Shown: positions 1,663 to 36,261 of the stretch, in pieces
Position numbering within the stretch: the stretch's first letter is position 1
How the letters are laid out: every line of letters begins with the position of its first letter
NCBI GenBank assembly: GCA_031763465.1
Contig: JARFOE010000203.1
Coordinates: forward strand, 6,205,208-6,256,010
Length of the DNA stretch: 50,803 nt
Direction: 5' to 3'
Source: Squatina squatina
Taxonomy: Eukaryota
Notes under the pieces: model-generated
The model's database searches: none
What the model saw: only the letters and a program-made list of their open reading frames with translations
Told to the model about the DNA's origin: nothing
Translations under genes and position numbers: made by a program

Positions 1663-3806
1663 ATGGAGGACTTGCCAGAAATGTACATAATCTTCCAGGG
1701 CGAGGTACATCTTTCAACATGTACACAGATTGTTGCTTTAAATACACACAAATTTCTTACAATTTTTATTACCTGTAAAAAAAAAACCTGCTTAAATTAA
1801 TTTTTCAGGTTGCAACTGTAACAGAGTATGGAGCATTTATTAAAATTCCTGGTTGCAAACGGCAAGGTACATTATCTTACCAATTTTGTACACAGTATAT
1901 AGTATCTTACAGTTTTATATTTAAATATGTGCAGATAGCACTATTATTAAGATACACAAGTCCTTTCCACTCATTGAATTATACTAAGTGTGCGTCATCT
2001 TTTATTTTTATTGTTGTGGCTCTTGCCAAATTAGATACACGCTGTTCTATAAAATGCCTGATCAATATTTGCTACCAGTTGTATATGTTCCAAACTAGCA
2101 ATTCCAAATTCAAGCCAACAAACTCAGCGGCATAAATCAGAAGTAGAAACGGAGCAGTGAGCTGTGCCATACCAGGGCGAGTCACTGGGCTACGTGGGCC
2201 GGATAGCCAGGGGTCGTGGGCACTGTAGGCAGGATCTGTTCACTGAATGCTTGTTTTATTTTGCAGGTCTTGTTCACAAGTCACATATGTCAGCAAGTCG
2301 GGTGGATAATCCATCCGAGATTGTTGATGTTGGAGAAAAAGTCTGGGTTAAAGTAATTGGAAAAGAGGTATGGCAACTATCCCTGGACTTTCTCAAAGCT
2401 GCATGTGATTTTGAGAGAATTTTTCACAGCTCCATTCCTCTGATGATCTGTGGGGAAGATATCCTCCTTGTGCAATGTGCAACTAAATTAGATACATATT
2501 TGTCATAAATGGATTTACAATTTTGTGTCACATAGNNNNNNNNNNNNNNNNNNNNNNNNNNNNNNNNNNNNNNNNNNNNNNNNNNNNNNNNNNNNNNNNN
2601 NNNNNNNNNNNNNNNNNNNNNNNNNNNNNNNNNNNNNNNNNNNNNNNNNNNNNNNNNNNNNNNNNNNNNNNNNNNNNNNNNNNNNNNNNNNNNNNNNNNN
2701 NNNNNNNNNNNNNNNNNNNNNNNNNNNNNNNNNNNNNNNNNNNNNNNNNNNNNNNNNNNNNNNNNNNNNNNNNNNNNNNNNNNNNNNNNNNNNNNNNNNN
2801 NNNNNNNNNNNNNNNNNNNNNNNNNNNNNNNNNNNNNNNNNNNNNNNNNNNNNNNNNNNNNNNNNTAAAAGGAGTTTGAGGGGACATGAATTGTGTAAAG
2901 CAAGTAAAAATACACCTGCTTTTCTCACTTTTCTTTGAGGAGCTTATAGATCCGGTGGATTAGGGGAGTCAGTGGCTGTCATCAACTTGGATTTCAGAGA
3001 AGCGTTTGACACGATCTCACATGAAAGATTGATTCACCAGGTGCATGCCCATGTAATAGATAGCAAAATATTTGACTGGGATGATACATGGCATTTGGAG
3101 ATTTCATCGTGGAAAGTGGTTGCCAGTGGAGTCCCGCGAGACGTGTTATGGTTGCAGTGTAAGTTTTTATGAATGATTTAGAGGACAGAATATTGTTCAC
3201 TGTCTGAGATTACAGCGTGAACCCAAATTGTGTGCAGCAACCAATGGTGCAAACCAATGTGCGATAATCGAAAAGGTCCTGGACAGGCTGGATCAATAGG
3301 CAGAAAAGTGGTGGGTGGAATTAGCACAGATAAGTGTAAAATGATAAGAATAGGTAGAAAAATCAAGGATGTGGAGTACACATTAAATGTTACTTGGTTC
3401 TTGGAATTCTGTAGCGTGGTTTCCTACAGTTCAGCTGGTCCGCCAGATGTTCTGAAGTCGCAGCTCCTGCTGTTTTCAATAGAGCTGTTCTGGAACGTAT
3501 TCCATAATTGACGTTTTAAAAACCATCAAGGAAATATGTGGAAAGAGTGTCAGTCCTCTTGTATAAAAAGGAGAGTACTTGAAACAAAATGTAATTCCCC
3601 ATTTCTTCAGCAACATATACCTGACTTCACATGTTTGTGTAATGCTACAGCATTTAATAAACCTTGTGTATATAAGGTACTTGATTATAATTAAAAACAA
3701 GCTTTTGTTTTTAGGTGAAGGATGGCAAAGTCAAGCTTTCTCTTTCAATGAAGGCTGTCAATCAAGGATCTGGGCAGGACCTCGATCCAAATAACGTTGC
3801 TCTTGA
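1663..3806 (+). CDS. ZCCHC17: Zinc finger CCHC domain protein 17 / pNO40 (S1 domain), first four coding exons: 1663-1704, 1809-1866, 2267-2367, 3715-3806; 3' exons missing
   Basis: Spliced translation MEDLPEMYIIFQGE-VATVTEYGAFIKIPGCKRQG-LVHKSHMSASRVDNPSEIVDVGEKVWVKVIGKE-VKDGKVKLSLSMKAVNQGSGQDLDPNNVALE matches the ZCCHC17 S1 domain. All junctions are GT-AG and in frame. Confidence 0.95.
2900..3390 (+). mobile_element. Highly decayed CR1 LINE RT fragment in ZCCHC17 intron
   Basis: AVINLDFREAFDTISHERLI resembles the CR1 RT motif YLDFxKAFDxVPHxRL; VASGVP and DKCKMIRIGRK follow; multiple frameshifts. Confidence 0.7.
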
Positions 3807-4132
3807 GTATGTGTTTTTGTTAATGGCTTTGACTTGTTTATTTCTAAAATGCATTGTGATAACTTTAAAAGATTTCGAATTAAAAAGTTACTTTTCGAAC
3901 ATGGGTTACTAGGGTGAAAAGCTGACCAATAAACGACAAGGAAGCCCATTGAACATTTGTTCACAATTACTCACATGTCTTTTCTTGTATTTGTATTTTT
4001 TTCAGTTCTTCATCATTTCCAGCTCTTCACTGNNNNNNNNNNNNNNNNNNNNNNNNNNNNNNNNNNNNNNNNNNNNNNNNNNNNNNNNNNNNNNNNNNNN
4101 NNNNNNNNNNNNNNNNNNNNNNNNNNNNNNNN

Positions 4133-4470
4133 TGGAGCTTAGGCGGAAACATTAGGATGAGGTACAGATCAGCCATGATCTAATTCAAAGGCGGAAAAGA
4201 TTCGATGGGCTGATTGGCCCACTCCTGTTCCTATCTTCCTGTGATGAGGTCACCCCTTCAGGTGAGATGTTAAACCAAGGCCGCCTGTGTCTCAAGTGGG
4301 TGATTCACATCCCACGGCAGAGGAGCAGGGGAGTTCTCCCGGTGTCCGGGCCAACATTCCTCCCTCAACCAGCACCACCAAAGAGAGATTAACTGGTCAT
4401 TCATCGCATTTGCCCTCTGTGGGATCTTGCTGTGTGTCAAATGGCTGCTGCATTTTCCTACGCTTCTGAG
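4133..4470 (+). mobile_element. CR1 3' tail followed by partial Deu-domain SINE
   Basis: cagatcagccatgatctaatt...ctcctgttcct CR1 tail, then gagcaggggagttctcccggtgtccggg, shared with other SINE copies in the window. Confidence 0.65.
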
Positions 4471-5414
4471 TAATGTATTGCAGGTGCAGTAAGTTTCTGG
4501 GCTGGGTTGAGGCGCTGTCTGATCACAAGTCTTCAAGTCTTCCATTGTTACAAAGTGCCCCGCTGCACTGCTGCCACCTGCTGGAAGGATATCAGTGCTG
4601 CAGGGAATAATTCCCCATTAAAACCCGCCCAAGAAGCAGCGACTGTCTCTGAAGGTTCACAGGCAGGATGGGCCGAATGGCCTCCTTCTGTGTTATATCA
4701 TACTCTGATTCTTATGAATTCTTATACTTGAATCATATCAATTCCACCTCCTCAAAAAAAACTGATTTCATTCAATCCTATTGTTTGATTGTACTTTCCA
4801 GGGCCATCATTGGGAAAGATTAGCTAGAAAACGCCTCAGTAATATTCACAATCATGTGGGAAATATAAACCGATTCACCATTAGTGTGTAAGGTTTGGTA
4901 TATGCTGCAGTATTCAGCCTGCTTTGAATTGCCCGACATAAACCAACATGGTTGGCACCCAGGCATTGTTCTGCCCACAGAGCGATTTAAGCAGAGTAAT
5001 GGTGGAGAACAAGTGATTGGGGAAACCGGGAACTGTTCACAGGATCGCTGTCAGTCTTGGTATCTAGACCCTGGCTTGGGCAAGTCAACTCCAATCTGCT
5101 GCGTCGGTTCTTCTGCTGAATATCACGATGACATTCACTCTGTGGGGCAAAATGTGTGTCGCTCACCTCTCTCTGAGGACCTGGTTAGTCTGGACAGAGG
5201 GTCATTGGGTCACGGAGCTCTGTTGGATTGCTTGTGACAGCCGAACTTTCCATCTGAAATGTGTCCTTATATATTTCTTACTCCCATTTACTGAGTTCAC
5301 TATTAAATCCTGCCTGTGTCTCTAAAATTACATCTACTCGTCTATCTCTTGCAAACGGCCGCTATTGAGCAGCTCTGATAATATAATGTTAGTTCTTGAT
5401 TACAGGGATTAAAA

Positions 5415-5820
5415 TTCTTGGCATTAGGCACCTTACAGCCTTCCGGCCTCAACATTATGTTCAAGAACTTCAGATCACAACCACCCTTACCATTCTGCTG
5501 GGACCATCCACATCTCCTCTGGACCCATCTTTTGTTTCTGTACTTGTCCCATTACCATCCTCTTTTGCTTTGCACCATCCCTTTTGACATTGAATCACTC
5601 CTGCCCCCCACCCTGTATCACAGACTTTCCCTTTTGTTATTTCCTTGCACCCACCCCTCCCCCTTTCCCAGGCTCTGTACCTGCTTATAGATTGTTAAAT
5701 CTCCAACATTTTCCAGCTCTGACTAAAAGGTCACCGACCTGAACCGTTCTGTTTTTCCCCTCCACTGATGCTGCCCGATGTGTTGAGTGTTTCCAGCATT
5801 TTCTGTTTTTATTCGGGATT
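5415..5820 (+). mobile_element. Penelope-like element 3' relic (GIY-YIG C-terminus, pyrimidine-rich UTR, degenerate hammerhead-like motif)
   Basis: LGTLQPSGLNIMFKNFR matches the Penelope GIY-YIG end (LGTLxPxGLN); ctgactaaaaggtcaccgacctgaac at 5719-5744 and gatgctgcc...ttccagcattttctgttttt follow. Confidence 0.7.
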
Positions 5821-6094
5821 GGGAATGTTAATGTGAGATATATTACGTTGTAACAGCGTAAGAGTAAATACGGTAACTGGTCTCTTCAGGGCAATTTAGC
5901 GACAAGTTAGTGTGAGTTCATGACAGGGAGTTGGGAATTGTCTTATTGTGCGGTATTTCACTTTGTATCACTGTCAGGATAAATATGGTGACACCGCAGG
6001 GAACTGAAGGCGGATTTGATGGACGAACCGGGGTTGGATCCACGCACAGAAATATGAGCCCAGCATTTTGAATCAGGAAGCGCTGAAACTCATC

Positions 6095-6819
6095 CTGGCT
6101 TCCAGACAGCAGGCGGAGAGTTTCATTGAGGAGTTAAATTGTCCCATTTGTCCCGATTTCTTCTCCGATCCGGTTATGCTGGAGAGCGGACACAACTTCT
6201 GCCGCTCCTGTGTCACCCGGCCCCGCGAAAACAAGGAGGCGACAAACTCCTGCCCGGAATGTAGAGAGGAGTTTGGAGACAGAAACCTCCCGGTCAATCC
6301 GGCCTCAGCGGGTCTGGCCGAGAAAGCTCGAACATTAAACCTGAATGGGAAAAGGAAAGCAAGTAAACTTCACTGTGAGGAACATCAGGAAGAACTGAAG
6401 CTGTTTTGTGAAACTGACAAGAAACTGATCTGTGTGACGTGCCTGGGCTGGGAGAGACGGACAGAGTGACGAGTCGCGCCGCTTCCTGCTGATCAATGAA
6501 GCTGTTCAGATCTCCAGGGTGAGATTCACTTGATCCAGTCCTTCACTCGCATATTTTCAGAAACACTTTATTCTGTGATTTTTTCTCCCAATCTCAGGAT
6601 CGGCTGAAATCTTCCTTAGATTCTCTCACAGAGAAGAAATCGGCGGCTCTAGAAACGGAATTAAAACAGGAACAGCAGGTTTCCGGAGTTAGGGTGAGGT
6701 CTTCCTGTGCTGATTTTCCGGGATCTCGGTTAGTTTTGTTCTCTTTATCGCGGTACATTAATTATGTTTCACATTTCATTTGTTAGGAACAGTCGAGCAG
6801 TCTGCAGACCCGCATCACA
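6095..6819 (+). pseudogene. TRIM RING-B-box pseudogene (exons 6095-6518, 6598-6693, 6787 to gap)
   Basis: Paralog of 7212-7752. ATG is replaced by CTG (6095), a RING Cys is lost (LESGH versus LECGH), and the B-box has a TGA at 6467 plus a frameshift before RFLLINEAVQISR. Splice sites and the 96-nt exon are preserved. Confidence 0.8.
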
Positions 6820-7200
6820 NNNNNNNNNNNNNNNNNNNNNNNNNNNNNNNNNNNNNNNNNNNNNNNNNNNNNNNNNNNNNNNNNNNNNNNNNNNNNNNNN
6901 NNNNNNNNNNNNNNNNNNNAGCCCCGTGTGTGACTCGTTGTTAAATTTTGTGTGAGGCAGATTTATGGTGTTTGCCAAAAGAACCAGAGGCGACATGAGG
7001 AAACATTTTTTTAACACAGCGAGTTGTTGTGATCTGGAATGCGCTGCTAAAGCTCCTCTGAGCGCCTTGGGAGCCTTTACTACGTTAAAGGGACAATATT
7101 AAAGCAGGTTGTTGTAGTTGCTGAAGAGTGATCTCAGACTGGGAACCGGGATGGCTCCACCCACAGAAACACGAGACCAGCAGTTTAAACAGGGAGCGCT

Positions 7201-7211
7201 GAAACTGAAAC
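7201..7211 (+). promoter_or_regulatory. ISRE-like GAAACTGAAAC abutting the TRIM ATG
   Basis: gcgctGAAACTGAAACatgg matches the GAAANNGAAA consensus. Confidence 0.4.
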
Positions 7212-7752
7212 ATGGCTTCCAGACACGAGGCGGAGAGTTTCACAGAGGATTTAAATTGTCCCATTTGTCTTGATTTCTTCACCGATCCGGTTACACTGGA
7301 GTGTGGACACAACTTCTGCCGCTCCTGTATCACACAGTATTGGGAAAAGAAGGAGACAAACTCCTGCCCGGAATGCAGAGAGGAGATTCCGGAAATAAAC
7401 CTCAAGGTTAATTGGGCCTTGGCGAGTCTGGCCGAGAAAGCTCGAAAATTAAACCTGAATCCGAAAGAGAAGGAAAGTAAATTTCACTGTGAGGAACATC
7501 AGGAAGAACTGAAGCTGTTTTGTGAAACTGACAAGAAATTGATCTGTTTGGTTTGTCGAGATGCGCGGGGACACAGAGAGCACCGCTTCAGGCCCATTAA
7601 AGAAGCTGTTGGAATCTACAAGGTAAAAGGGATCAGATGTGATCTCCTGATTATTTTATCACATTTTCATGGTCCAACACTTTAATTCTGTGATTTTCTC
7701 TCCCAATCCCAGGATCGGCTGAAATCTTCCTTAGATTCTCTCACAGAGAAGA
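7212..7752 (+). CDS. TRIM (RING + B-box2) E3 ligase, exon 1 (7212-7622) and start of exon 2 (7713 to gap)
   Basis: C3HC4 RING CPIC...CGHNFCRSC...CPEC and B-box CEEH...FC...CLVC...H..H. The 411-nt exon ends at AAG|gtaaaa; the next exon begins DRLKSSLDSLTEK. Confidence 0.9.
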
Positions 7753-10704: not shown

Positions 10705-10805
10705 NNNNNNNNNNNNNNNNNNNNNNNNNNNNNNNNNNNNNNNNNNNNNNNNNNNNNNNNNNNNNNNNNNNNNNNNNNNNNNNNNNNNNNNNNNNNNNNN
10801 NNNNT

Positions 10806-11053
10806 TGTCGTTTTAGTTGAGGGATTAATATTGGCCCCAGGACACCGGGGAGAACTTCCCCCTGCTCTTCTTCAAAATAATGGACTGTGGTTTAATATCT
10901 CACCCGAAGGACGGCACCTCCAGCAGTGCGGCATTCCCTCAGTACTGGGAGTGTCAGCCTGGATTTTTGCGCTCAAGTCTCCGAAGTGGGGACTGGAACC
11001 CATGACCTTCTGACTGAGAGGAGAGAGTGCTGCCCACTGAGTCATGGCTGACA
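10806..11053 (-). mobile_element. tRNA-headed Deu-domain SINE (SacSINE1/AmnSINE-like)
   Basis: Reverse strand begins tgtcagccatgactcagtgg (A box) ... ggttccagtcc (B box), followed by ggaggtgccgtccttcgggtgaga and gaagagcagggg Deu-like core. Confidence 0.8.
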
Positions 11054-11215
11054 ATGTCACAGCATGATGAAGGGGGTGTTGGGGAAGGGAGGGCGGCGGA
11101 GGGAGTGCGGTGTGTTGGGGTGGGCGGGGTTGTGGGGGGGGGTGGGGTGGAGGGAGAGTGGATTCTTCCTGCCCGATGGGTAGATGTTTATTTGTCCCCT
11201 TTTAACTGTTTGTAG

Positions 11216-11497
11216 GTTTGGTTTCAGAACGCCAGAGCTAAGCTCCGGAAGACCCTCTTGCAGGAGGAGAACACGGACAGCGACACCGTGCCGGAGACGC
11301 AGGAGCTGTCGCGCTCCCCGGTGGCCCAGCAGAACACGGGGGCCCCGGGCCCCCCCAGCCCCCTCTTCTCCACCCCCAACGGCTCGGCACCCTGCCCCCA
11401 GCCGGCCGGGCCAACGATGGCGCCCATCTTCCTGAACTTCGACCCCGCAGAGCCCTCCGACTCCCTCCGGACCATCGACCGCACCAATTTGTGCTAA
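11216..11497 (+). CDS. LIM-homeobox LHX2/LHX9-subfamily terminal exon (homeodomain helix 3 + C-terminal tail)
   Basis: Acceptor tgtag|GTT TGG TTT CAG AAC GCC gives VWFQNARAKLRKTLLQEENT...TNLC*. The phase-0 intron before VWFQN, the ARAK-R--LL-EN motif and the terminal TNLx are LHX2/9 hallmarks. The ORF track misses the homeodomain part. Confidence 0.85.
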   Translation, partial: VWFQNARAKLRKTLLQEENTDSDTVPETQELSRSPVAQQNTGAPGPPSPLFSTPNGSAPCPQPAGPTMAPIFLNFDPAEPSDSLRTIDRTNLC

Positions 11498-11972
11498 AGG
11501 CGGAACGAGGCGGACTCATAAAAAAAGAATTGGCACCGCTGCACTGGGAGTTGGCATCTTGGGACTATACATTGATGCAGTTAAAAGGGAAGGTAGATAA
11601 GCACATGAAGGAGGGAGGAACAGGTTATACCGATGGAGTTAGATGAAGTAGGGGTGGGAGGAGGCTCATGAGGAACATAAACACCCGCACGGACCAGTTC
11701 GACTGAGTGGCCTGTTTCTGTGATGTAACAATTCAAGGTAATTCTATGAGTGAAGAGGCCAGGAGCAGAAGTGCTGAGACTTACTGCCGGGGAGTTGGTT
11801 GTTAACGCCCGCCTTCCAATCAGTGCCGAGCNNNNNNNNNNNNNNNNNNNNNNNNNNNNNNNNNNNNNNNNNNNNNNNNNNNNNNNNNNNNNNNNNNNNN
11901 NNNNNNNNNNNNNNNNNNNNNNNNNNNNNNNTGAGGAGAAAAAAAGTCGATCCATTCCTGGATTGCAAATAC

Positions 11973-12263
11973 CTGTGATGTTTAAGAGAGCCACCAGCGG
12001 CCGGGAGAGTTGGCCACCAGCCACACCATAGAGGTAAATGGTATAGTTGGTTGTCGGCCTGAGGCCTGTGATGTAGGCTGATCGGTGTTCGTCAGGTACC
12101 GTGATGTTCTGCAGGGTGTCAGAACCCTGAGCTCTGTACTGTATCAGGAAGGAGTCAAAGACACTCTCAGCTATCCAGGAGAGCTGGAGGGAGTCAGCTG
12201 TGATGTTAGAGAATGAAAGGCTCCCAAATGTGTGCGATGTTACTCCCTCTTTGTCTGTGGAAG
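11973..12263 (-). CDS. TNXB: Tenascin-X-like fibronectin type III exon (291 nt, phase 1-1)
   Basis: ASTDKEGVTSHTFGSLSFSNITADSLQLSW...FDSFLIQYR...ITGLRPTTNYTIYLYG...; polypyrimidine-AG acceptor and GT donor. TNXB versus TNC is inferred from MHC context and the FDSF..QY motif. Confidence 0.75.
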
Positions 12264-12459
12264 CTAAAGGGAGAAGAAGAAGAAGAAAAAAAAAGAAATA
12301 TACACAACACTTTACTGAGGGGAAACTGCTGCTGCTCAACTACAAGAGGAAGCGCTTCCTTACAGTTTCAACTCTCCAACAGACCACAGTGCCTTGTGTT
12401 GCCCAGGCAACTGTCTGTCGACAGTAAGTGAGGACTCTGATTGTCAGTGCGTCACAATT

Positions 12460-12850
12460 GTAGAATCTCATGGCCCATTGTGCCTGTGCTGGCTCTTTGA
12501 AAGAGCTGTCTAATTAGTCCCACTCCCCACCCCCGTCCTTTCCCCTTAGTCCTGTAATTTTTTTCCTTTCAAGTATTTATCCAATTCCCTTTTGAAAGTT
12601 GCTATTGAATCTGCTTCCACCGCCCTTTCAGGCAGTGCATTCCAGATCACAACAACTTTCTCATCTCCTCTCTGGTTCTTTTGCCAATTATCTTAAATCT
12701 GTGTCCTCTGTTTACCGACTCTCCTGCCAGTGGAAATAATTTCTCCTTATTTACACCTTATCAAAACCGTTCATAATTTTTGAATTCCTCTATTTAATCT
12801 CCCCTTAACCTTCTCTGCTCTAAGGAGAATAATCCCAGCTTATCCAGTCT
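12460..12850 (-). mobile_element. CR1 LINE 3' fragment
   Basis: cccctttcaggcagtgcattccagatcacaacaac...ccccttaaccttctctgctctaaggagaa is the reverse of the CR1 ORF2 end. Confidence 0.8.
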
Positions 12851-12917
12851 CTGAAGTCAAAGCGTAAAAGTTAAACTTTTGACATGAAGCTGATGATTCT
12901 AACTTTCTCTTCCCCAG

Positions 12918-13085
12918 CTGATAGCTATTGTGATGGATGTATTCACCGACATTGACATCTTCTGTGATGTGCTTGAGGCAGCCAACAAGCGCATGGTCAC
13001 TGTTTACCTGCTACTAGACCAGTGCTCTTTACAATACTTCACTGACATGTGTGAAAAACTCCAGATAAAAGACAGCCACCTAAAG
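12918..13085 (+). CDS. FAM83A: FAM83 family DUF1669 exon, FAM83A-like (168 nt, phase 0-0)
   Basis: cccag|LIAIVMDVFTDIDIFCDVLEAANKRMVTVYLLLDQCSLQYFTDMCEKLQIKDSHLK|gtatg; EAANKR and DSHLK are as recalled for FAM83A. Confidence 0.85.
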
Positions 13086-13261
13086 GTATGTGTTTTGTCA
13101 GCATTATATTAAAGAGTAAAATAATCCAGTTTTAAAACTACGCAATACATATTATGTATATCTGGGCTCACACTTGGTCTAGGAATGGGAGAGTGACCAA
13201 CTCTTATGGAACTGAGCCCGGGTAAAACAACAGGGGATGTTGAGAAAAGTGACAAGCCAAA

Positions 13262-13450
13262 AGCTCAGAGCAGTGAAGGCTAAGGGGAGATTTAATAGAG
13301 ATGTTCAAAATTATGAAGTGTTTTGATAAAGTAAATGAGGAGAAACTGTTTCCACTGGCGGGAGGGTTGGTAACCAGAGGACACAGATTTAAGATAATTG
13401 GCAAAAGAAATGAGGAGAATTTTATTTTACGCAGCGAGTTGTTATGGTCT
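13262..13450 (+). mobile_element. CR1 LINE fragment
   Basis: RLRGDLIEMFKIMKCFDKVNEEKLFPLAGGLVTRGHRFKIIGKR. Confidence 0.8.
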
Positions 13451-14055
13451 ATATTTACTGCTTTAAAGCCTACTCTGAGTATATTTTCCTCTGTTCCCTG
13501 CGAACCTAAAAGTGCTGGGATACTGTCCCATGGGTACCGGTCACTCACTGGCGTTACACCCACGTGCCCATTGACAATATGAATGGGATAGAGAGCATCA
13601 ACAGATTGCATGTGCATGCCAGGCATCACAGGCCCAAACCTGACCTCACTCAACGCACTGACATTTCCAATNNNNNNNNNNNNNNNNNNNNNNNNNNNNN
13701 NNNNNNNNNNNNNNNNNNNNNNNNNNNNNNNNNNNNNNNNNNNNNNNNNNNNNNNNNNNNNNNNNNNNNNNCCACGAACAACCCGTCACTCTTGAAGCAG
13801 TACAATCAACTCTAGAGCTTTAAAAATCATTTCTTCCTTCAAGGCATCCACACTGTACAGAAACAAACAACATTTGAGTTTTCAGGTAAATGGACAATGA
13901 AAGTGGTTATCGTTCCAAGATGGCGGACAACGGTTGCCATAGCAGCGCTGGAGCTTCAAGGAGCATCCGAGGTGATAATTCTTTTTGTACAAGATGGGAA
14001 AAGACTGTGCAAAGTTAAAATAATTTCCCTGAGAAAACTTGCTGGCGAAGAATAC

Positions 14056-14355
14056 CTGCAGTGGTTATTATAGTGGTTAGTGGCCTTGTTCGTCTGCTGC
14101 CGGAGACCCCATAGAGAGAAACCAGGTACTTGGTACTGGGCCTTAGGCCTCTGATGAAGGACGACTGTCGGTCCCCAGTTACGGTGAAGTTCTGCGTCTC
14201 TTCGGAACCCTCGACTCTGTACTGGATGAGAAATGAGTCAAACCCACTCTCGGCCGCCCAAAAGATTTGGAGGGAGTCCTGTGTGACATTATTCCCTGAA
14301 AGTCGGATAAGTTTACCCAGCCTGCTCGGTTTTATGCCATTGGTATCTATGAAAA
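14056..14355 (-). CDS. TNXB: Tenascin-X-like FNIII exon (300 nt, phase 1-1)
   Basis: FIDTNGIKPSRLGKLIRLSGNNVTQDSLQIFWAAESGFDSFLIQYRVEGSEETQNFTVTGDRQSSFIRGLRPSTKYLVSLYGVSGSRRTRPLTTIITTA; canonical splice sites; absent from the ORF track. Confidence 0.75.
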
Positions 14356-14819
14356 CTGGAAAAAAAAAGGAGAAACACCCGACTTAAAGACCGTGTTGTG
14401 GGCAATCACCCCTCACTGTAAGTTGGTCGAAATCATATCAAGCACCTTTTTTGTTTTGGGTTAACTATCCACCGCCTCCTAAAGATGGATGGGTGGAAAG
14501 CAATGGTCACTGTAAGCAGGTAAAAGAGGAAAAAAAAACTCAACTCAGGCGGGTGACCAATATATACCAGTCACCGTGATGCTAGTTCAGAGGTTCCTCC
14601 GTGTTGAGTTTCCTTGTGAAGAGAAATCAATTGGCAGCCGAATAACTGTCGGTTCAGATGAGGAAATGTCGCACTGATTTCCCAAGGGGGAGGGGGCAGG
14701 AATCATTGCGGGCTGAAGTAGGGGTTTAAGGCGCACTCTTATCGCACTCACCTATATACACCATGTGTTTTAGTAGAGAAGCCCTCCGAACATTGCACGC
14801 TTCATGTGTTACAGTAGAT

Positions 14820-15225
14820 AAGATTTGTAGACTATATACACTGTATATTATGGTACAGAGCTACAGCAGAAAATATACCGTATATTATTGTATTCATTCA
14901 CAGCGCTATATACACTTTATTATTGTACAAATTCCACAGAGCTATATACACTATATCTTATTGTACAAGGTCCACAGAGCTATATACACTGCATATAATA
15001 TGGTCCAGATCCACAGAGCTATATACATTGTATATTATGGTACAGGTCCACAGGTATATACGATGTATATTATGGTACAGAGCCACACACAGGAGCAGCA
15101 GGTCTGCAGAGGTATATACATTGTATCTTATGGTACAAAGCCACACATACAAGGAGCAGGTCTACAGAGGTATATACACTGTATATTATGGTAGAGAGCC
15201 ATATGCAGGTCCACAGGTATAGACA
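14820..15225. repeat. Degenerate AT-rich tandem repeat (core tatatacactgtatattatggtacag, units about 35-55 bp)
   Basis: Core motif repeated about 9-10 times with variable ccacagag/ggagcagg spacers. Confidence 0.85.
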
Positions 15226-15475
15226 GCAACAGTCCTCGGTAAAGTGAATCATACTGCTCTTGTGTTCATTCACTGCTCTTTCACTCATTCGACCACCATT
15301 CACCACTTAATCTGGGCTCTAAATTTGCAAAAGCGGGAGGGAGAGACATCCCGTAAACACACATTCAGACAGAGAGGGGACAAGTTTAAAGTTTGCACTA
15401 AACTGACAGGACAGTTAGCGCAGTTAAACTTGGTCCATTTGCTGTTTCAGGGAAGAGGTAGAGGTTACCAGATAT

Positions 15476-15713
15476 ACTTCCAACAATAGAGATGGCGGAT
15501 TGCTCCAGTGAGATCACAGAACTCGAACTGCAGGGCATTGAGGCAAAATGGTGCCCCAAACCATTTGTACCATGAGGAAATGATAAAGTAAGCATTCGCG
15601 GAGCAGAAAGCAACAGTCTGAGGTGAACAGTGTGCCAGGGCCTTGGTTAAGCAGATAGGAGTCACAAGGATCAGTCATCAACCTGACTGGGAAACTACCT
15701 CAGAAAGAAAGCT
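15476..15713 (-). pseudogene. Probable decayed FNIII pseudo-exon
   Basis: Residual motifs in shifting frames (DSYLL, AYFI, caccat..ctc.at, AISIV) are collinear with the neighbouring FNIII exons; the downstream intron 15341-15405 resembles 16131-16220. Confidence 0.4.
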
Positions 15714-15759
15714 ACATCAGATTCTTCCCAATCAGAAAGAAACTGGGAAACCTCACAGG

Positions 15760-16066
15760 AATAGGAATTGAAGAGATCACAAGGAATGGGAATTGAAGAG
15801 ATCACAAGGAATGGGAATTGAAGAGATGTCAAGGAATGGGAATTGAGATCACAAGGAATGAGAATTGAAGCGATCACAAGGAATGGGAATTGGAGAGGAC
15901 AAAGAATGGAATGGAAGAGATCACAAGGAATGGAAATTGAAGAGAGGTCAAGGAATGGGAATGGAAGAGATCATGGGGAATGGGAATTGAAGAGAGGTCA
16001 AGGATTGGGAATTGAAAAGAGGACAAGGAATGGGAATTGAAGAGATCACAAGGAATGGGAATGGAA
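15760..16066. repeat. 25-bp purine-rich minisatellite (aaggaatgggaattgaagagatcac)n, about 12 copies
   Basis: Unit starts at 15781 and 15806 and continues with variants to 16066. Confidence 0.92.
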
Positions 16067-16397
16067 TCATTCCCTGGTTGACGGTGAAACTATATATTTA
16101 TATACAGGATATGAATATATAAGAGAGAGAGAGAGACATCCCATAAACNNNNNNNNNNGACTCAATACACAACCTCCCAGAGACAGAGAGGGGCAAGTTT
16201 CAACGTTTGCACCAAAGTGGGAGGAACGTCGGCCCAGAGAAACTTGCCACTTGCGGAGTTTTGGGGAAAGAGACCGGGGTAAGGGGGATTGTCTCAAGAG
16301 AAAAAGCCGGGAAATATTTGTCCGCTTGCGCCACAGAAGGGCGATGGAAATATTTCTGATTTTTGAGCAAGGACTCTTTGCTGGTTGGCCACGATAC

Positions 16398-16697
16398 CTG
16401 TTGTCGTCACGACGATGGAGAGCGGGCTGGTGTGACGGCCCCTGGACACTCCGTAGACGTAGATGGTGTACTTGGTGCTAGGCTTGAGACCCAGGATGAT
16501 GTAGGATCCCCGGTTGCCGGATACCCTGAGCTTCTGCACCTCCTCAGAGCCCTGGGCTCTGTACTGAATGACGATGGAGTCAAAGCTCCACTGGGTTGAC
16601 CACGAGAGCTCCAGTGAGTCAGCCGTGATGTTAAACACGGAGAGGCTGCCCAGCGCCCTCAGGTGACTCGGCCTTATACTTTCCTTAACTATGGAAG
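16398..16697 (-). CDS. TNXB: Tenascin-X-like FNIII exon (300 nt, phase 1-1)
   Basis: ASIVKESIRPSHLRALGSLSVFNITADSLELSWSTQWSFDSIVIQYRAQG...GLKPSTKYTIYVYGVSRGRHTSPLSIVVTTT; AG/GT bounded. Confidence 0.78.
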
Positions 16698-16787
16698 CTA
16701 GAGGCAAGAGAGAGAGACAGAGAGGGAGGAAAAAAAAAACCCAAATGAAACATATGCAGGAGATTCTGCGGTGAAAATTTTAAAATG

Positions 16788-17092
16788 GATTTGCATTTAT
16801 TCAGCTCCTTTCACCACCGTAAGACAATGAAGTAATCTTGAAGTGTAGTCGCTCTTGAAATGTAGGAAACGGAGCAGCCAATTTGCACACAGCAAGCTCC
16901 CACAAACATGCAATGTGATAATGACCAGATCATCTCATCCGAAAGACAACACCTCTGACGGTGCAGCGGCTCCCTCAGCACTGCACCGGGAGTGTCAGCC
17001 TGGATTATGGGCTCAAGTCTTTTGAGTGGGACACGAACCCACAACCTTCTGCCTCAGAGGCGAGAGTGCTGCCCAATGAGCAAAGGCAGACA
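16788..17092 (-). mobile_element. Deu-domain tRNA-SINE
   Basis: ttgcatttat tail, ctcatccgaaagac core, and A/B-box head at the 17092 end. Confidence 0.8.
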
Positions 17093-17831
17093 ACCGAACA
17101 CTTAACTCGTTAGGTATAGAGTTGACCTATGGAGATATTCGAGCACTAGAGGCAGCGCAGAGAAGAGCTTGGAGTCTGATCTGCAACGACAGAGGGCCTG
17201 AGTGATGAGGAAGGACTGGAGAGACTCGGGCTATTCACCATGGAAAGGATGCGACCGGGAGGTGACCTTATAGAGAGATATAAGATGGATATTGAAGAGG
17301 TTATGTCACTTTAAACTAAACTGTGAAGGTAGGGCAGGAGTACAATATAATTAGAGTAGTGATATCCAGAGATCTTTCTCACATAAACGGAGGGTAGTTT
17401 TGATTTTGGGCGACAGTGCAAAACGGTCAATGTCGAATCAGCTATCCCTGAAACATCTCTCCTGATTGGACTTACGGCACAGAAAGAGACCCAACTGGTC
17501 CATGTATCTGCTCCACACGAGCCTCCTCCTCCTCTCACCATATCAGCATTTCCCTCCCTTCCTTTCCCCTCATCTGCATATCGAGCTTTCCCTTAAGACC
17601 ATCTATACCAGTCACTTCAACAACTCCCTGTGGCACCAAGTTCCACATTCTCACTNNNNNNNNNNNNNNNNNNNNNNNNNNNNNNNNNNNNNNNNNNNNN
17701 NNNNNNNNNNNNNNNNNNNNNNNNNNNNNNNNNNNNNNNNNNNNNNNNNNNNNNNNNNNNNNNNNNNNNNNNNNNNNNNNNNNNNNNNNNNNNNNNNNNN
17801 NNNNNNNNNNNNNNNNNNNNNNNNNNNNNNN

Positions 17832-18117
17832 GTGGAAGCTACAACGGCCATCAGCTTTGTGAGCTGACTTTCAAAGACCCCATAGAGATAGATGGTGTAT
17901 TTTGTGCTGGGCCTGAGGCCTGTGATGAAGTAGGACCGCTGGTCACCGCCCACAGTCAGGTTCCGTATACTATGCGAGCCGTGGGCCCTGTACTGTACCA
18001 AAAATAACTCGTAAACCCGCCCCACCATCCAGGAGAGCTGGAGGGAGGTGGCGGTGATGTTAGCTATGCCAGGCCTGACCGGGGCCCTTGGTGGTGGACT
18101 ACCAGGATCTATGGAGG
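17832..18117 (-). CDS. TNXB: Tenascin-X-like FNIII exon, 3' end lost in gap
   Basis: ASIDPGSPPPRAPVRPGIANITATSLQLSW...VQYRAHG...ITGLRPSTKYTIYLYGVFESQLTKLMAVVAS; acceptor at 18118-18119. Confidence 0.75.
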
Positions 18118-18269
18118 CTAAAAGAGAAAAAAGTCGATGAGAACCTAGCATTACTGGTCGAAAGCCCTGTTAAGTGTCACCGAGCAGCGGAGAGCCACGA
18201 TTTGAACCTACAGAGAATGCCAACTGAAGCACTCAAATACTGACGGATTCTGTCGGGTATGTGTGAGCT

Positions 18270-21560: not shown

Positions 21561-21806
21561 AGGCACAGAAGTGGTGGTGGCAGAGGAGTTGTCACATCAA
21601 GCAACTAATCCAATATTGCCTGTTTTACACGATCAGCGAACGTTAAAATTACCCCCACCGATTTTAATACTTGGGTCAGTCAGTGGAGGAATCGGTAGTC
21701 CTATATTAACATTTAACAGCTTAAAATTATTATGGATTGCTGCAATTAGACATTTAACAATAAAAATGAGTAATAGTTTTTATTACTGATTAAATCCTAA
21801 TTGCAG

Positions 21807-22091
21807 GTTTTGGACACCGACCTTGGATTCACCTGGAGGAAAACCACAAACAAGGAGTTCGTGTTGTGTGTAAATCTGATGGATGGTATCCTGAGCCACT
21901 GATATGGTGGGTGGATGGGAATGGACAAAATTTGACAGCACGGTCTGAAACAGGATTCATCAAGGACTCCAGAGGCCTTATTGCTGTCCAGAGTCATATT
22001 GATGTGATAAGTGATTCTGTAAACAAGTTTTCTTGTTTCATGCAAAACTGGTTATTGCAGAAAAAACGAGAGGCCCATATCCAGATATCAG
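21807..22091 (+). CDS. Butyrophilin/BTNL-family IgC domain exon (285 nt, phase 1-1)
   Basis: ttgcag|GFGHRPWIHLEENHKQGVRVVCKSDGWYPEPLIWWVDGNGQNL...FSCFMQNWLLQKKREAHIQIS|gtacgt; the C-S-GWYPEP-W and C---N-LL---K---I-I pattern is typical of BTN IgC. Confidence 0.85.
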
Positions 22092-23716
22092 GTACGTGAG
22101 AGCTTAGAAATTGTTTTATAAAAAGAACAACCTAACTATATTTCTCCTCTCCTGAAGGCACTAACTTAGACCGGGTGTGGGTCCACGAGCACTGGCTCTC
22201 CTGTGGACCATGCCCAAGAGGCAGTTTTTCATAACTGAACCCAGAAAGTTGGCAAACTCGTGGACTATCTGTGACACTGCAGATGAGCCTGATGTGTCCT
22301 CACCCAATGTCCACATGTCCATATTCCAACAGTGGTCACTGGATAGAGATTAGGAGCAAGTACACTGGGTATTGTGGTTTTGTATGACTGAAGACAGGAT
22401 TTGAAGCGACAGTTGACATCTTCTCTAAATGTCAATTCATAACAGCACCTGGGATCCAGGTGGATGTCTATCTTATCTGGACATAGTACTGCAGGACAGG
22501 TATGAGAGGGGCAAGGGGGAGTTTGGCCTTTATCCTTCTGGATTGATAGCAAAGTCTGTGACCCTGAAATTCCTTTGTCCAGGGATGGGGCACAGCGGAG
22601 TTTTTCCTGATATTCTCAAATTTCACAGGAGCCAAAAGCTCGTTTCCATGGTCTCTCACAACATCTCTCCTGGAGGTCTGCAATGCCTTGCCCTCATGGT
22701 GGGTAAATCAGAGTAGATCCATCAGGTTAAAATTATGTACAGGGCAAAGGAAGTACTCAGAACTGAAGAATTTTGTTCTTTCGATTTTGCTCTTTCTTCC
22801 CTGTTCAGTATTGTAATGATCCCTCCCCACAGTCTACAGATTCATTCTACATCAAAAATGTACTGCTTTTTAGGCAATAAAAGTGGGATTGCTTACTTCC
22901 TTTTCATTTTCAATGTAACCTGTGCGAGAGAATGNNNNNNNNNNNNNNNNNNNNNNNNNNNNNNNNNNNNNNNNNNNNNNNNNNNNNNNNNNNNNNNNNN
23001 NNNNNNNNNNNNNNNNNNNNNNNNNNNNNNNNNNATCAAAAGGGAATTCTATAAACACTTGCAGGGAAAACATTACAGTCTATGGGGAAAGAGCAGGGTA
23101 GTGGGATTCATTGGCAAGCTCTCCTAAAGAGCCAGCACAGGCACGATGGCCCGAATGGCCTCATTCTGTACTTTACCATTCTCTGATTCTGTGTGTCCCA
23201 CTGTTTGAAGATTGGGAACACTGATTCCTCACAGCAAAACCCAATCTACACGTTGGTCTGCCGAATTACCCTCCGTCTCTTCACTGGCACAAACACCACA
23301 GCTGAGGTGCACCCCTTAACTTTCTCCTACCAGACCATGATTTCTGTCACCCTTTGTAACAGAGGCCCACCCTCCTCCTCCAGGTCTCCTCTACTGCTCC
23401 GACCCCCAGTACGGTCTTCTCTAAAGCCTCATCTATAAAAGCTTTACGTGTCCCCTTTGTCATGTACTTCCCACTGGTGTTCTCTCTCACCCCAGTTCCT
23501 CTCTCCTGCCCCTCTTTACCTTTAACTTCCCAACTGGAGTCTGTGGTTCCCTTGGTGCATTTCTGCCCCTCTTTAAATTCACTCTGTCCCTCAGCCCCGA
23601 TGATTCTCGATGTTGTTGAGATTTTTAAATTTAATTTTGCAGGAGTCTCTGGAGAAGTTGCCATGAGTTTGTTCCACTGCACCGATTAACCAAACAAATA
23701 TCACCAACAAGACATT

Positions 23717-25025
23717 GGCCTGAATTTCAACATTTTGTCGGGCTGCGAGCTGGTGGGGCTCAGTGGAGTTGGGACCCCCAGAAGAACAGGTTTCACACAG
23801 GCCCTGCCTAATTTAACATCAGTGCCTGATTTATACTGGAAACCTTTGTTTACCAACCACAGCCAGTCAGACTGAGAGGCTCGCAGGCAGCTAGGCCTGC
23901 GGCACGAGGCCAAAGAGAGGAGGAAGGGAGGGATCACATTGGGGCTGGGGTTGGGTGAGTGGAGAAGCATGGGGAGGGCAGGAGGAGCGCATTGTGGGCT
24001 GGGGGTTACATTCGGCATTGATCGGGGTGGGATTGGAGGAGCCAATGGGCTGTGGGGCCTAATCTGTGGGCCGGAGCAGTGGGTTTGCTGGGGTTGGGAA
24101 TGATCGGGGGCCAGAGTAGCTGATCGGGGGCTGGGTGGGGTGTAAGGGTTGGTCGTGAACGAATGGAGGCTGGTTGAGCAGATCAGGGGCTGGAAGAGAA
24201 GCAGCAGTCTGGAGGAGCAGATCAGGGGCAATGGTCATGGGGGAGGTGGTGAGTGCAGGGGTGAAGAAGAACCAGGGGTCTGGAGCAGCAGGTCGGGGTC
24301 CAGAGGAGCAGGTCGGACACAGAAGGGAGCAGTGGTGGGGTGGGTCAGGAACGAATGGTAGCTGAAGGAGCAGATGGGGAGCCACAGGAGAGGCAGGGGT
24401 CCGGAGCACCAGATCGGGGTCCAGAGGAGCAGATCGGAAGCTGAATGGAACGGGGTTTGTGAGAAGGGGTAAGTGGGAGCCTCATCAGAGGGCCAGGCAT
24501 CGCAGCAGGTCCAGGAGGAGCGAGGGTAGGAAGAGGAGCAGGGTGGGAGGGGTGAGGTAGGGAGGCAGACGGCGTCAGCGGGTCGGAGGAGCATGGGGAG
24601 GTAGAGGCATTGTGAAGGGGATCAAAGGCCTGGGTGTGGGGGGAGGATCCTAGGCTTCGGGCTTTGTCCGTTCACGGGGAGTGGGGGAGGCAGGGTCTCT
24701 GGATCCAGGAGGTAAATGTGAAGGCGCTTACTTCCTGGATCCAGCAGTCCTCACCTTCCATTAACTGGCGGGTTTCACGAGGCCTGAAAACCCCAACCAG
24801 CGACAGTGAAATTTAAAATGGAGGTTAAATCTGAGGGAGGCCAGTCTCATTATAATATTTAAATGTTCAACCCGCCTCCTGGGAGCGGATTGGCTGCCCG
24901 GCCCTGTCCCGCCTCCATTAAGTGGGCGGGTTAGAGGTGGGTCCGGATCCGGATTCAGATTTTTAACACTTTAACTTCCCACCCGACCCCCACCCACCCG
25001 TATTTATGGGGTTAAAATTCCCCCC
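23717..25025. mobile_element. Putative non-autonomous PIF/Harbinger-type DNA transposon (imperfect 15-bp TIRs, 3-bp TSD)
   Basis: Left end GGCCTGAATTTCAAC; right end GTTAAAATTCCCCCC (reverse complement GGGGGGAATTTTAAC); ATT on both flanks. GC-rich interior with repeated ggagcagatc-gggg. Confidence 0.5.
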
Positions 25026-25161
25026 ATTGTCAGTGTGTTGTACCCGCCCTGACCTCAGGTGACACTGGGACCATCCGCACCACCTGGGACTGAGACCGAC
25101 GTCCAGCAGTTTGCAGCTGGCAGGACGCAGGTAGGCGGTGTGAAATTATGGGATGGTCCTG

Positions 25162-28100
25162 TCAGTGACCTTTGATCCCACAGATTCTCAGCGGGGCGGA
25201 GTTTTTCCCGCCCTCACTCAGTCCCGGACTGAAGATGGGAAAGAGTGTCTCAGTGAAAGTGTGGGTGAAGGTGTGGAGATGGGACATGTTGTCCGCATTG
25301 TAAAAGGACACCTGTCCGCCCTCATAGTCCAGGAACACCCCGATCTTCCGGGGATCCCCACTCGGGGTGAGGGGGGTCTGTGAGGGGGAGGTGAGGGCAA
25401 CATAGCCATTAACGGGACCCAGCCCCACCATCCAGTATCCGGTCTCAGGTGTCGGGTCAATTTCTCCTTTCCTGTCGGCTGACTCTCGGGTCACTCCCAT
25501 CTCCCACCGTGTCTTGTTCCCCACCTCCACCTCCCAGTAGTGTCTCCCTGATGTGAATCCCTCCGATCCCAGGACATAGAGATAGAGATCAAACCTCTCC
25601 GGGGTGTCAGGGAGCTCCTGCCATTTGTCTCCGAGTCTCACACGGGTCCGGTCCTCAGACACGATGAGCCGGGGATGGGCTGTGTTCGGATCCAGAGTCA
25701 GAGAGGCTGGAGCTGGGGGAAAGTTACAATCACACAGTGAGCGGTTGAGTTTGTTGCTGTGATTTATTCAAACACTTGCCCTTTGTAAAGTGGCCATTCG
25801 GGGGATTCCCGGGAACTGCGGTGTTTTTAAAGGGCTCCAGGTTCTGTTATTGGAATCTGCTCTGACCCGGGGGTTTACACTCCTGGGGTCACTCTGACCT
25901 CTGCTGGCCACTGCGATCCGACCAGGAACTCTGCGGCCCCCGGTCCCCTGCTGTTCTCAGCGGCTGCAGAGTGACCCAGGGACCTTCAGAAACACACAAG
26001 GAATCGGCGCCAGAGGCTACGGCGGGGCTTCCGAACGGAAGAGGGGGAAAGGGACAGACAGCAGAAGGAAAGAGAGAAGGGAAGGGAAAAAGGGGAAAAG
26101 AAGAAAACGAAGGGGAACTGCTGCAGAGGGGAAGAGAGAACCCAGAGGAGGAGGGAAAGTAACTTTATAAAAATACCCCACATCATTATATCCATAAACC
26201 GCAATAGACTCCAACACACAATCAGGCAAAACTAAACTGATCGACATAAAAGGACAGGTGGAAGCGGCATTTCTACAGGAGACCCTCCTCATCGCCCTCA
26301 GAACACACCAGGTTTAGGAGTGAGTGGGTGGGACAAATGCTGGCCGCCTTCTCCTCAGCCAAGAGCACAGGACAGTCACACTGATCACCAGCAACCTTCC
26401 CATTACTCTGGAGATACACATTCCTGGAGAAGGAGGCCGCTCCATCCGAATGGAATTTGATTGTCAGGAGAACCCAAAGTGATGCTTCAGTTCAGTGTCC
26501 GGAATGTGGAGTCCCCGCATCAGCATTCCTCACACTCGCCCCACCCATGGACAGCACAGGAACCAGGAGTGGAGACCCGAACTGTGCTCTTCACTCCCAA
26601 CAGGACAAGCTCCCAGTGGACACAGGACACGAGGACCAGCAGCCGGACCAATCCGAGATCAGTGTAGTGTCCTGGGCCGAGAGGATGTATGGACGGCCCA
26701 CACCCCAAAGAGAAGGAACTCACCTTCGACTTGAACCGACACAAGACACACTCCAGGATCGGCTACTCCTATCTGAAGCATCCCGTCTATCCCGCCTAAC
26801 CTGTTGTGATAGGAGGTAAACAGGACTTGTACCAATTATCCTCCATTCAGTCCTCGGAGCCTCAATCCTTCCCTCCGACATGACTGAGAGTTCCTGCCGA
26901 CCTCAAGGCGAAGCTTATCTCCTCACATATACCCTAAGGTCGAAAATGCATGAGTGAACTATGGCACATGGTCACTCTGTGTCCTAATCTCAGAAGGTGA
27001 GCTCGAACCAGGAGAAAACAAACCAACTGACGCCCACCCGACCAAGATTAACAAGACCACAATCCCGGAACTTTCTCCCCTCTGACTGAACCTCCCACAC
27101 CCTGTACTGGAGACACAGAACCAGATACTCTGAAATTTTCAACAATCGTGTGAATACATAAGAACAGTGAGGTTATCCCCACATGGTCACCATACACATT
27201 CCTTAATGCTGACTATAAAATATTGGCCAAAGTCCTGACCTCCAGACTGGACACGGACATCAGTGATCATTTAATCTGGGGTCTGGGAGCCGGTTTACGA
27301 TCCTCTCATCTGGATTTATAAATCAGGAAAAGGAATAGAAGAGTTTTACCGGGGTTAATGGCGTCGATCATTTCTCTCCACGCTGTGTACTGGAAAGGGC
27401 CGTTGAACTTTCCGATCGACAGCTTGTCATCTGCGACTGATAGTTTGTAATAATCCTCACCAGTCCTGTAAATATTCAACAGTTGATGTTATACATTGAC
27501 CATAAACCCTTTGCTGAGTTATTTTACTAAATTGTGCAGAGTTTCAGTAAACAGCTTGTCCTACCTCCTCTTCTGACACGCTTCCTCCTGAAATCAATAA
27601 AACACCAATCTGAGCTGACGGAGACTGACCGTCTATATCCGGACAGCAGGAATCACACCCACATTGTACAAGATGCTGATAATTCCCAATTCTCACTGCC
27701 GGGATCACACAGATTGAAAGAGGATATGTTTGAAAACCAGGCAGCAGAAATTCCACCAAAAATTATGAAAAGCATCTGATAGAAAGAGGATGCAGTTGTA
27801 AACTGTGATTTGTGTTGTCAGGTTCTGGAACTGAACACCAGTCTCACTCAGAGACACAGTGACTCTCACACCCACCGTACCAGGCACACCCACACACTCA
27901 CACAATGTAACTGGAACTGGATTGTAATGGGAGTTCCAGGAGAATATTAACCTCTTGGGGAGACAGCAATAATTACAGATTAAGTATCAGGGCAACCCGT
28001 TCCCGGATCCTGCAGACAGTGTGGGAGGCGGTTAGTTCAGTCACAATAGCAGATCCGCCCCGGAATACACAAAACAATCGGTTTTAATCAGTTTCGAATT

Positions 28101-29094: not shown

Positions 29095-29104
29095 GTTCAC
29101 ACTC

Positions 29105-29179
29105 AGCACTTCCTGATTCAAACCGCTTTCAGTTTCGATGTTGCTGAGCTCCCGAACACCTTCGGCTCAGGGATTTCCC
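29105..29179 (-). promoter_or_regulatory. ISRE (GAAACTGAAAG, 29136-29126), NF-kB site (GGGATTTCCC, 29170-29179) and ETS core (CAGGAAGT) just upstream of the TRIM ATG
   Basis: Consensus matches within about 85 bp of the start codon; function is inferred. Confidence 0.5.
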
Positions 29180-33899: not shown

Positions 33900-34095
33900 T
33901 GTAAAATGAGCGGTGTTGCATTGGCGGCATAAAACGCGCAGCGGCAGTGTAAAATGAGCGGTGTTGCATTGGCGGCGTAAAACGCAGCGGCGGTGTAAAA
34001 TGAGCGGTGTTGCGTAGGTGGCGGCGTAAAATGCGCGGCGGCATAAAACCAGTGGCATTGCATTGGCGATGGTGTAAAACGAACGGCATTGTAAA
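33900..34095. repeat. GC-rich ~45-48-bp tandem repeat (gtaaaatgagcggtgttgcattggcggc), probably a MITE interior
   Basis: Unit at 33901, 33949 and 33995, followed by degenerate copies. Confidence 0.8.
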
Positions 34096-34304
34096 TCGAG
34101 CAGCATCGCGCGGGCCATCCAGTATAGGCTCCGCCGAATATTTAGCTTGATTGTGATCAATAGAAACACAAATAAGCCGCGTGTAACACTGATTCACTCT
34201 TGCCCATATTGCAGTTCTGCCCAGCACGGATTGCACTGCTGCCCACCCCCCCGGACCCCAGTCCAGGTGCCGATTGTCTTTTTATGTTCCAATTGCTATT
34301 GCAG

Positions 34305-36210: not shown

Positions 36211-36261
36211 TTTCAACTTTCTTCTTTCGTACGGTAGTAGCAAAGCAAATCAAATGTCAAT

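Follow-up and report, generated by a model that had tools for sequence, protein, structure and literature searches.

A LIM-homeobox terminal exon on a short contig

The window, by which we mean the whole 50,803-nucleotide stretch of Squatina squatina DNA analysed here, carries the terminal coding exon of a LIM-homeobox gene that we call LHX-X, together with S1-domain, TRIM, fibronectin type III (FN3) and further marker exons (Table 1). The preliminary description presented this exon as intact, and we agree: 93 codons and a stop lie in an open frame, with the acceptor AG and its pyrimidine tract in place directly before Val47 of homeodomain helix 3. The tail contains MAPIFLN, a clade-typical motif that is also present in LHX-X of lungfish, sturgeon, reedfish and newt. 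GC3 of the exon is 0.91, against a GC of 0.57 for the contig that carries it.

Table 1. Positions and strands of the features recognised in the window
Feature	Position	Strand	Remarks
S1-domain exon (read as ZCCHC17), two RING/B-box TRIM starts	2161..7682	+	domain matches
N-free contig with LHX-X exon	10805..11831		1,027 bp; no second coding exon recognised
Pyrimidine tract and AG splice acceptor	11191..11215	+	phase 0; AG = 11214-11215
LHX-X terminal exon	11216..11497	+	homeodomain positions 47-60, Pro/Ser-rich tail, stop codon
Four fibronectin type III exons, four adjoining contigs	11932..18169	-	read as tenascin-X
Downstream marker set	21794..49835		domains; names inferred from domain and position
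Butyrophilin Ig-C, first then second copy	within 21794..49835	+	domain match
TRIM RING and PRY-SPRY	within 21794..49835	-	domain match
Carnitine acyltransferase	34176-38664	+	domain match
Two CD225/PRRT1-type pieces	within 21794..49835	+	domain match
Cytochrome P450	within 21794..49835	-	domain match
V-ATPase G	49440-49835	-	domain match

Searching with the exon returned 11 matches from sharks, rays, lungfish and sturgeon, all labelled Lhx9-like or Lhx2-like. The best of them, a Heterodontus 'Lhx9-like' protein, is 83% identical across the whole exon with E=1e-40, so the match is not due to chance. Identity to shark and ray LHX-X exons is 67-83% (62-66% in two more batoids), compared to 35-37% for chondrichthyan LHX9 and 31% for shark LHX2.

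The exon contig is flanked on both sides by 100-N gaps. The window as a whole consists of 31 pieces, mostly of 1-2 kb, and 23 of its 30 gaps are exactly 100 N long. A motif scan for LIM or upstream homeobox exons in the window came back empty, and tblastn of four full-length orthologues against the window recovered this exon alone (next best E=0.52). The LIM and remaining homeodomain exons whose recovery had been proposed are therefore absent from the window, while both domain types are present in the orthologues.

Single-copy markers of the window agree in order and strand with sawfish chr34, multi-copy TRIM and butyrophilin pieces apart. The tenascin-X name of the FN3 exons is inferred from order and strand, as in sawfish TNXB; against PDB, their best matches are fibronectin and the Tencon consensus. 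Roughly 38 kb of the window corresponds to ~0.86 Mb in sawfish. The pieces were probably ordered on a reference and would then not be independent evidence of linkage. Given the compressed span and the 1-2 kb pieces joined by 100 N, we discarded the window gene order as proof of MHC linkage. The placement of the exon among MHC class III markers is, in the window, a statement about scaffolding, and it stands by virtue of the chromosome-level assemblies described below.

A separate clade of the Lhx2/9 family across jawed vertebrates

LHX-X exists across jawed vertebrates, with members in sharks, rays, coelacanth, lungfish, salamanders, bichirs, sturgeons, holosteans and teleosts. A homeodomain search with sturgeon LHX-X, of which the best 120 of 260 matches were examined, added reedfish, coelacanth, newt, gar, bowfin and ~100 teleost clusters; the axolotl, Lissotriton and Polypterus proteins were obtained through cluster look-up. 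The gene is filed under at least four labels, namely Lhx9-like, Lhx2-like, Awh-like and ttx-3-like. The matches listed (the best 120 of 260) did not include any name from frogs, caecilians, amniotes, holocephalans or cypriniforms. In human, the LIM class comprises 12 genes, of which only LHX2 (9q33.3) and LHX9 (1q31.3) belong to the Lhx2/9 family in the part of PMC2211742 available. Together, this suggests that LHX-X may have been lost in frogs and in amniotes other than human as well.

Membership of the Lhx2/9 family is clear from several sides. In the top 120 matches the 110 non-X proteins are all of LHX2/LHX9 type, the LHX-X homeodomain reaches 0.77 identity to LHX2/9 vs ~0.40-0.54 to other LIM-homeodomain (LIM-HD) classes, and LHX9 is the best homeodomain match in PDB. 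An ESM Atlas search returned LIM-HD clusters only. Nine of the 150 representatives carried the X homeodomain motif, all of them LHX-X of shark, coelacanth, sturgeon, newt or teleost, and none of the 150 was an invertebrate-type representative with that motif.

Within the family, LHX-X is neither LHX2 nor LHX9. The diagnostic homeodomain motif occurs in 0/110 LHX2/9 proteins vs 26/26 non-neopterygian and 101/102 neopterygian LHX-X, and three careful trees each unite LHX-X in a single clade with 100/100 support (23/23, 8/8 and 5/5 members). LHX-X, LHX9 and LHX2 lie on three different sequences in 8/8 species in which all three could be placed. The preliminary description was thus right to separate the exon from the LHX2 and LHX9 orthologues: the canonical genes occupy other sequences of the same species, and the case it named against itself, a lack of separate canonical LHX2 and LHX9, is contradicted by related species, which have both. 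It had also proposed a copy retained in this lineage, of which the separate paralogue stands, but sharks, teleosts and salamanders alike possess the gene. The family-specific C-terminal ends that it described (TNLC/TNLF) hold for elasmobranch members only; bony-vertebrate members end differently.

Against this separation, LHX-X (P0018) and LHX9 (P0032) of Mustelus are on sequences of equal size, as are LHX-X and LHX2 in Pleurodeles (P0144/P0109) and Lissotriton (P0293/P0107). Two MHC paralogons may have been fused onto one chromosome in these three genera. Newt MHC-type genes are placed on Pleurodeles Chr 6 in the available part of PMC12863176.

An altered homeodomain and drifting LIM domains

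Five homeodomain substitutions (K17E, N23K, A28G, L31W and T41P) are invariant in 26/26 and 102/102 LHX-X at two-decimal rounding, a uniformity that is inflated by the sets having been chosen partly by homeodomain similarity. K32E and Q36K are found in non-neopterygian LHX-X, and F56L in nearly all. None of the invertebrate homeodomains (0/35) has any of the LHX-X residues C7, E17, K23, G28, W31, E32, K36, L56 and K58, and the 110 LHX2/9 all retain the alternative residue at these nine positions; we therefore take the LHX-X residues to be derived. Positions 2, 3, 5, 47, 48, 50, 51, 53, 54 and 55 are the same as in LHX2/9, including an identical recognition helix. In a predicted model (mean pLDDT 62.5), the LIM pair and the three-helix homeodomain are confident and the rest is disordered; positions 17, 28, 31, 32 and 36 lie in helices 1-2.

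Homeodomain identity is 0.85-0.97 among non-teleost LHX-X and 0.68-0.77 (68-77%) between LHX-X and LHX2/9, whereas LHX2/9 themselves are nearly invariant (0.93 to an annelid). LIM identity among non-teleost LHX-X is 0.59-0.74 (0.86 between two elasmobranchs), similar to the 0.62-0.72 of LHX-X vs LHX2/9. The orthologues P0003, P0295 and P0144 combine two LIM domains with a homeodomain, as expected of the LIM-homeodomain class, and the complete set of 16 LIM zinc ligands, in canonical LHX2/9 spacing, is kept by 128 of the 150 X-type proteins. Judged from these alignments, the LIM pair is intact, though drifting.

The homeodomain changed a second time in neopterygians and teleosts, at positions 9-11, 15, 32, 33 and 36 (e.g. 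P0156, P0241). An N-terminal motif, ML[FLIV][HQ][GS][FIL], is likewise gone in their LHX-X.

Linkage to the MHC in chromosome-level assemblies

LHX-X is linked to MHC class III in chromosome-level assemblies. Proteins were matched to loci by species and product name in sawfish and reedfish, and by sequence size in white shark and axolotl. In the accessible gene tables of PMC10751288, sawfish chr34 runs atf6b, olfactomedin-like 2A, butyrophilins, CENPA-like, Lhx9-like (+), CYP21A2 and TNXB (-), and continues with ppt2b, a carnitine acetyltransferase-like gene (+), two copies of PRRT1 (+), CYP2K6-like (-) and V-ATPase G2-like (-). This order, Lhx9-like-CYP21A2-TNXB, supports the linkage to TNXB for which long-read data had been called (PMC10751288, in part). 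On white shark chr19, the same tables place an unnamed plus-strand gene immediately before CYP21A2, with zcchc17 0.7 Mb ahead of the CYP21A2/TNXB block; the white shark sequence with LHX-X is 115,848,844 bp long, and the last gene of MHC chr19 ends at 115,613,256 (PMC10751288). Axolotl LHX-X is on a sequence of 848,590,089 bp and MHC chr13 is given as 848.6 Mb in the part of PMC12619710 at hand. In the maps available from PMC4364491, LHX9(_L) adjoins TNXB in platyfish and tilapia. The lungfish rows near TNXB, in the accessible table, carry no gene names (PMC10751288).

The reedfish offers a comparison of two loci within one genome. Its MHC on chr1 reads csnk2b-psmb10-(one uncharacterised gene)-Lhx2-like-qrfp-MHC I-fkbpl-atf6b-olfml2A-like, and chr9 holds the canonical Lhx2 locus, olfml2a-...-psmb7-nek6-Lhx2, in the same partial tables (PMC10751288). 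Three paralogue pairs can be drawn between chr1 and chr9 in these data, i.e. the two LHX genes, PSMB10/PSMB7 and OLFML2A-like/OLFML2A. LHX-X sits among PSMB10 and OLFML2A-like, whose paralogues flank LHX2, as a gene of the MHC paralogon should.

Reedfish qrfp may be a further MHC-linked paralogue whose counterpart is of chr9 type, as judged by the human position. It adjoins the MHC LHX gene at NC_041394.2:66,058,211-66,060,096 in the reedfish table, as far as available (PMC10751288).

Origin of LHX-X

The lower bound on the age of LHX-X is firm: because both sharks and bony vertebrates carry it, the gene predates the shark/bony fish split. The trees used to place it further held no other LIM-HD classes and no amphioxus or lamprey sequence, and P0146 was left out because of an internal repeat. 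LHX-X falls on the LHX9 side in a 23-member tree (99/100, one outgroup) and in a 5-member tree built without hagfish, sturgeon, reedfish, axolotl X and two outgroups (83/93). It falls outside LHX2+LHX9, with weak support, in the fast tree and in an 8-member tree, the latter supporting its vertebrate placement at 87/90. One hagfish protein grouped with LHX-X in the fast tree and with the other hagfish protein in the 8-member tree. In the ML tree behind the AU tests, LHX-X branches below hagfish+LHX2+LHX9, again weakly supported.

The AU tests reject no placement of LHX-X (p=0.059 to 0.34), with values of 0.065 and 0.18 for LHX2+X, 0.28 for LHX9+X, 0.34 for LHX2+LHX9, 0.25 for LHX-X nested within LHX9 and 0.059 for LHX-X outside deuterostomes. 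PMC10751288, in its available part, argues that the paralogons on chr6 and chr9 form a pair, and LHX2 would hence be expected as the sister of LHX-X; this grouping was never recovered in four trees, its AU p values being the two given above. The tree that had been proposed thus delivers the clade at 100/100, but the sister gene differs between trees.

The N-terminal motif is found in 106/110 LHX2/9 and 16/26 non-neopterygian LHX-X, and in 0/102 neopterygian LHX-X, 0/2 hagfish and 0/36 invertebrate proteins, 30 of these 36 being assumed invertebrate from their position in the tree. This motif and the 87/90 support point to a date after the split from invertebrates, to be read with the AU p=0.059 and with trees that lack amphioxus and lamprey. 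As for the 2R origin put forward in the preliminary description, the paralogous synteny and the common vertebrate N-terminal motif speak for it, while the trees neither fix the sister nor reject an older origin. The paralogous neighbours PSMB7/10 and OLFML2A indicate a large-scale duplication, and LHX-X is most likely the MHC-chromosome copy from a genome duplication.

Taken together, we consider it highly probable that this terminal exon belongs to a third LHX2/9 gene of gnathostomes, a genome-duplication copy beside CYP21A2-TNXB, ATF6B and PSMB10. Could it instead be a single-gene duplicate of LHX9 that appeared between 2R and the divergence of sharks from bony fish and then moved into the MHC? 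The two trees with LHX-X on the LHX9 side, the AU result for nesting inside LHX9 (p=0.25) and the equal-sized LHX-X and LHX9 sequences of Mustelus are compatible with this. However, a lone transposition would leave the PSMB10 and OLFML2A-like neighbours unexplained, their paralogues PSMB7 and OLFML2A flanking LHX2, and 8 species carry LHX-X and LHX9 on separate sequences; we find such a duplicate quite unlikely. A pre-vertebrate Lhx2/9 duplicate surviving in jawed vertebrates alone seems very improbable. It would suit the AU value of 0.059 for LHX-X outside deuterostome Lhx2/9 and the weakly supported branching below hagfish+LHX2+LHX9 in the ML tree, yet LHX-X and gnathostome LHX2/9 have in common an N-terminal motif seen in none of the 36 invertebrate proteins, the vertebrate side is supported at 87/90 and no invertebrate-type representative among the 150 bears the X homeodomain motif.

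One might suspect that the exon itself is a diverged LHX2/LHX9 orthologue, or a pseudogene fragment that scaffolding put in the wrong place, as the exon stands alone on a 1-kb contig, with LHX2 and LHX9 of Squatina squatina outside the window. With 67-83% identity to shark and ray LHX-X vs 31-37% to shark LHX2/9, an open frame and an intact acceptor, this is hardly credible, and a diverged orthologue is refuted for related species by their separate canonical copies. Finally, LHX-X could have the same origin and no new function, being a redundant copy under relaxed selection that decays towards loss. Long branches, drifting LIM domains, further change in teleosts and absence from human all fit decay, but the five substitutions invariant in 26/26 and 102/102 proteins and the canonical ligand spacing in 128/150 do not, and we rate it as rather unlikely.

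Proposed function

For the genome-duplication copy that we favour, the homeodomain would have been altered in one early burst and frozen since, with the LIM domains drifting. LIM domains and LDB cofactors are a textbook partner pair. From established LIM-HD biology we infer that LHX-X acts as a LIM-homeodomain transcription factor, with its LIM pair on LDB cofactors, and that it recognises the TAAT-core sites that LHX2/9 read, the base-contact residues being unchanged. Predicted binding of LDB1/2 and TAAT fits the kept zinc ligands and DNA-contact residues. In other LIM-HD systems, an LDB dimer bridges two LIM-HD proteins, according to the accessible part of 10.1101/2020.08.24.265207. The remodelled helix 1-2 surface might provide new partners or an altered DNA affinity. 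Whether LHX-X modulates LHX2/9 targets or competes for them, in a narrower tissue role, is in our judgement about an even bet. Slightly below that we place the complete scenario: the MHC class III core houses a third, so far unrecognised ohnologue of LHX2/9 that acquired its new and since then conserved helix 1-2 surface (W31 included) when jawed vertebrates arose, that in fish and salamanders serves as a distinct regulator or antagonist at LHX2/9 targets, and that disappeared on the way to frogs and amniotes.

Relation to known genes

LHX-X shares with LHX2 and LHX9 of the apterous family the 116-residue ligand spacing of its two LIM domains, the recognition helix, which is identical, the N-terminal motif and its location on an MHC paralogon. 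Unlike them, it lies in the MHC proper, has another tail and is missing from the 12 LIM-class genes of human. NOTCH4, PSMB10 and TNXB are fast-evolving MHC-chromosome ohnologues, and Bmp16 and Pax10 are 'cryptic' pan-vertebrate genes lost in mammals. LHX-X resembles both groups as a long-branch genome-duplication copy kept in fish-grade vertebrates, and differs from them in being a LIM-homeobox gene. In human, paralogon pairs occur in four LIM families, whose members are confined to chr 1 and chr 9 in the available part of PMC2211742, so LHX-X fills the empty chr6-type slot.

Traces of the gene exist in the literature. An LHX9_L or LHX9 marker adjoins TNXB and ATF6B in platyfish and tilapia (PMC4364491, in part) and an LHX9 marker also appears in the MHC of pike and the MHC Ib regions of salmonids (PMC4364491, PMC7853315, both in part); this teleost marker is very likely LHX-X. 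In the passages available from these two papers it is a map label without a statement on a separate paralogue (PMC4364491, PMC7853315). The literature searched, with most subscription journals outside it, contained no paper treating LHX-X as a separate paralogue; PMC8040251, in its ohnologue table, and PMC7932699, in its orthology tables, could list the gene. LHX is mentioned 0 times in the body text of PMC10751288 and in those of PMC12619710, PMC12863176 and PMC10210626, as far as these were accessible, and 0 in the searched supplements of PMC12619710 and PMC12863176, the axolotl annotation file apparently being outside these. 'Lhx9l' in the available part of PMC12816808 was considered as a report of LHX-X and set aside, as it is a lamprey probe. 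LHX-X is therefore an additional Lhx2/9 member that is so far, in the literature searched, a map label and a database model.

Several consequences follow. The ancestral MHC class III core gains a developmental transcription factor gene, and LHX, PSMB7/10 and OLFML2 form a three-gene block for testing the chr6/chr9 pairing. LHX-X is also a clean case of a near-invariant homeodomain that changes once and then freezes. Many genomes list it under a wrong name (Lhx9, Lhx2, Awh or ttx-3), which deserves attention: if LHX-X is indeed a distinct regulator at LHX2/9 targets, fish and salamander 'lhx9-like' data partly concern another gene.

Other features of the window

A complete FAM83/SACK1 exon (12918-13085, +; Pfam E=9e-24) in phase 0 with both splice sites lies ~0.65 kb from an opposite-strand FN3 exon on the same N-free contig (11932-13671). 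It belongs either to a nested antisense gene or to a chimeric contig; FAM83 is not named near TNXB in the accessible sawfish table (PMC10751288). In a TRIM RING/B-box frame at 6020-6466 (+) the RING cysteines depart from the usual pattern and a stop codon comes early; this frame is possibly a pseudogene, and an intact-looking TRIM copy follows ~0.75 kb downstream (7209-7682). The window further contains a tandem satellite-like repeat (9732-10704) and a CA-rich repeat (42244-42720), and LINE-like and SINE-like fragments are common across it. A CRAT-like gene and TMEM268 are also present in the corresponding sawfish and reedfish regions, in the partial tables (PMC10751288), and the MHC-linked carnitine acyltransferase and V-ATPase G are candidates for further cryptic ohnologues.
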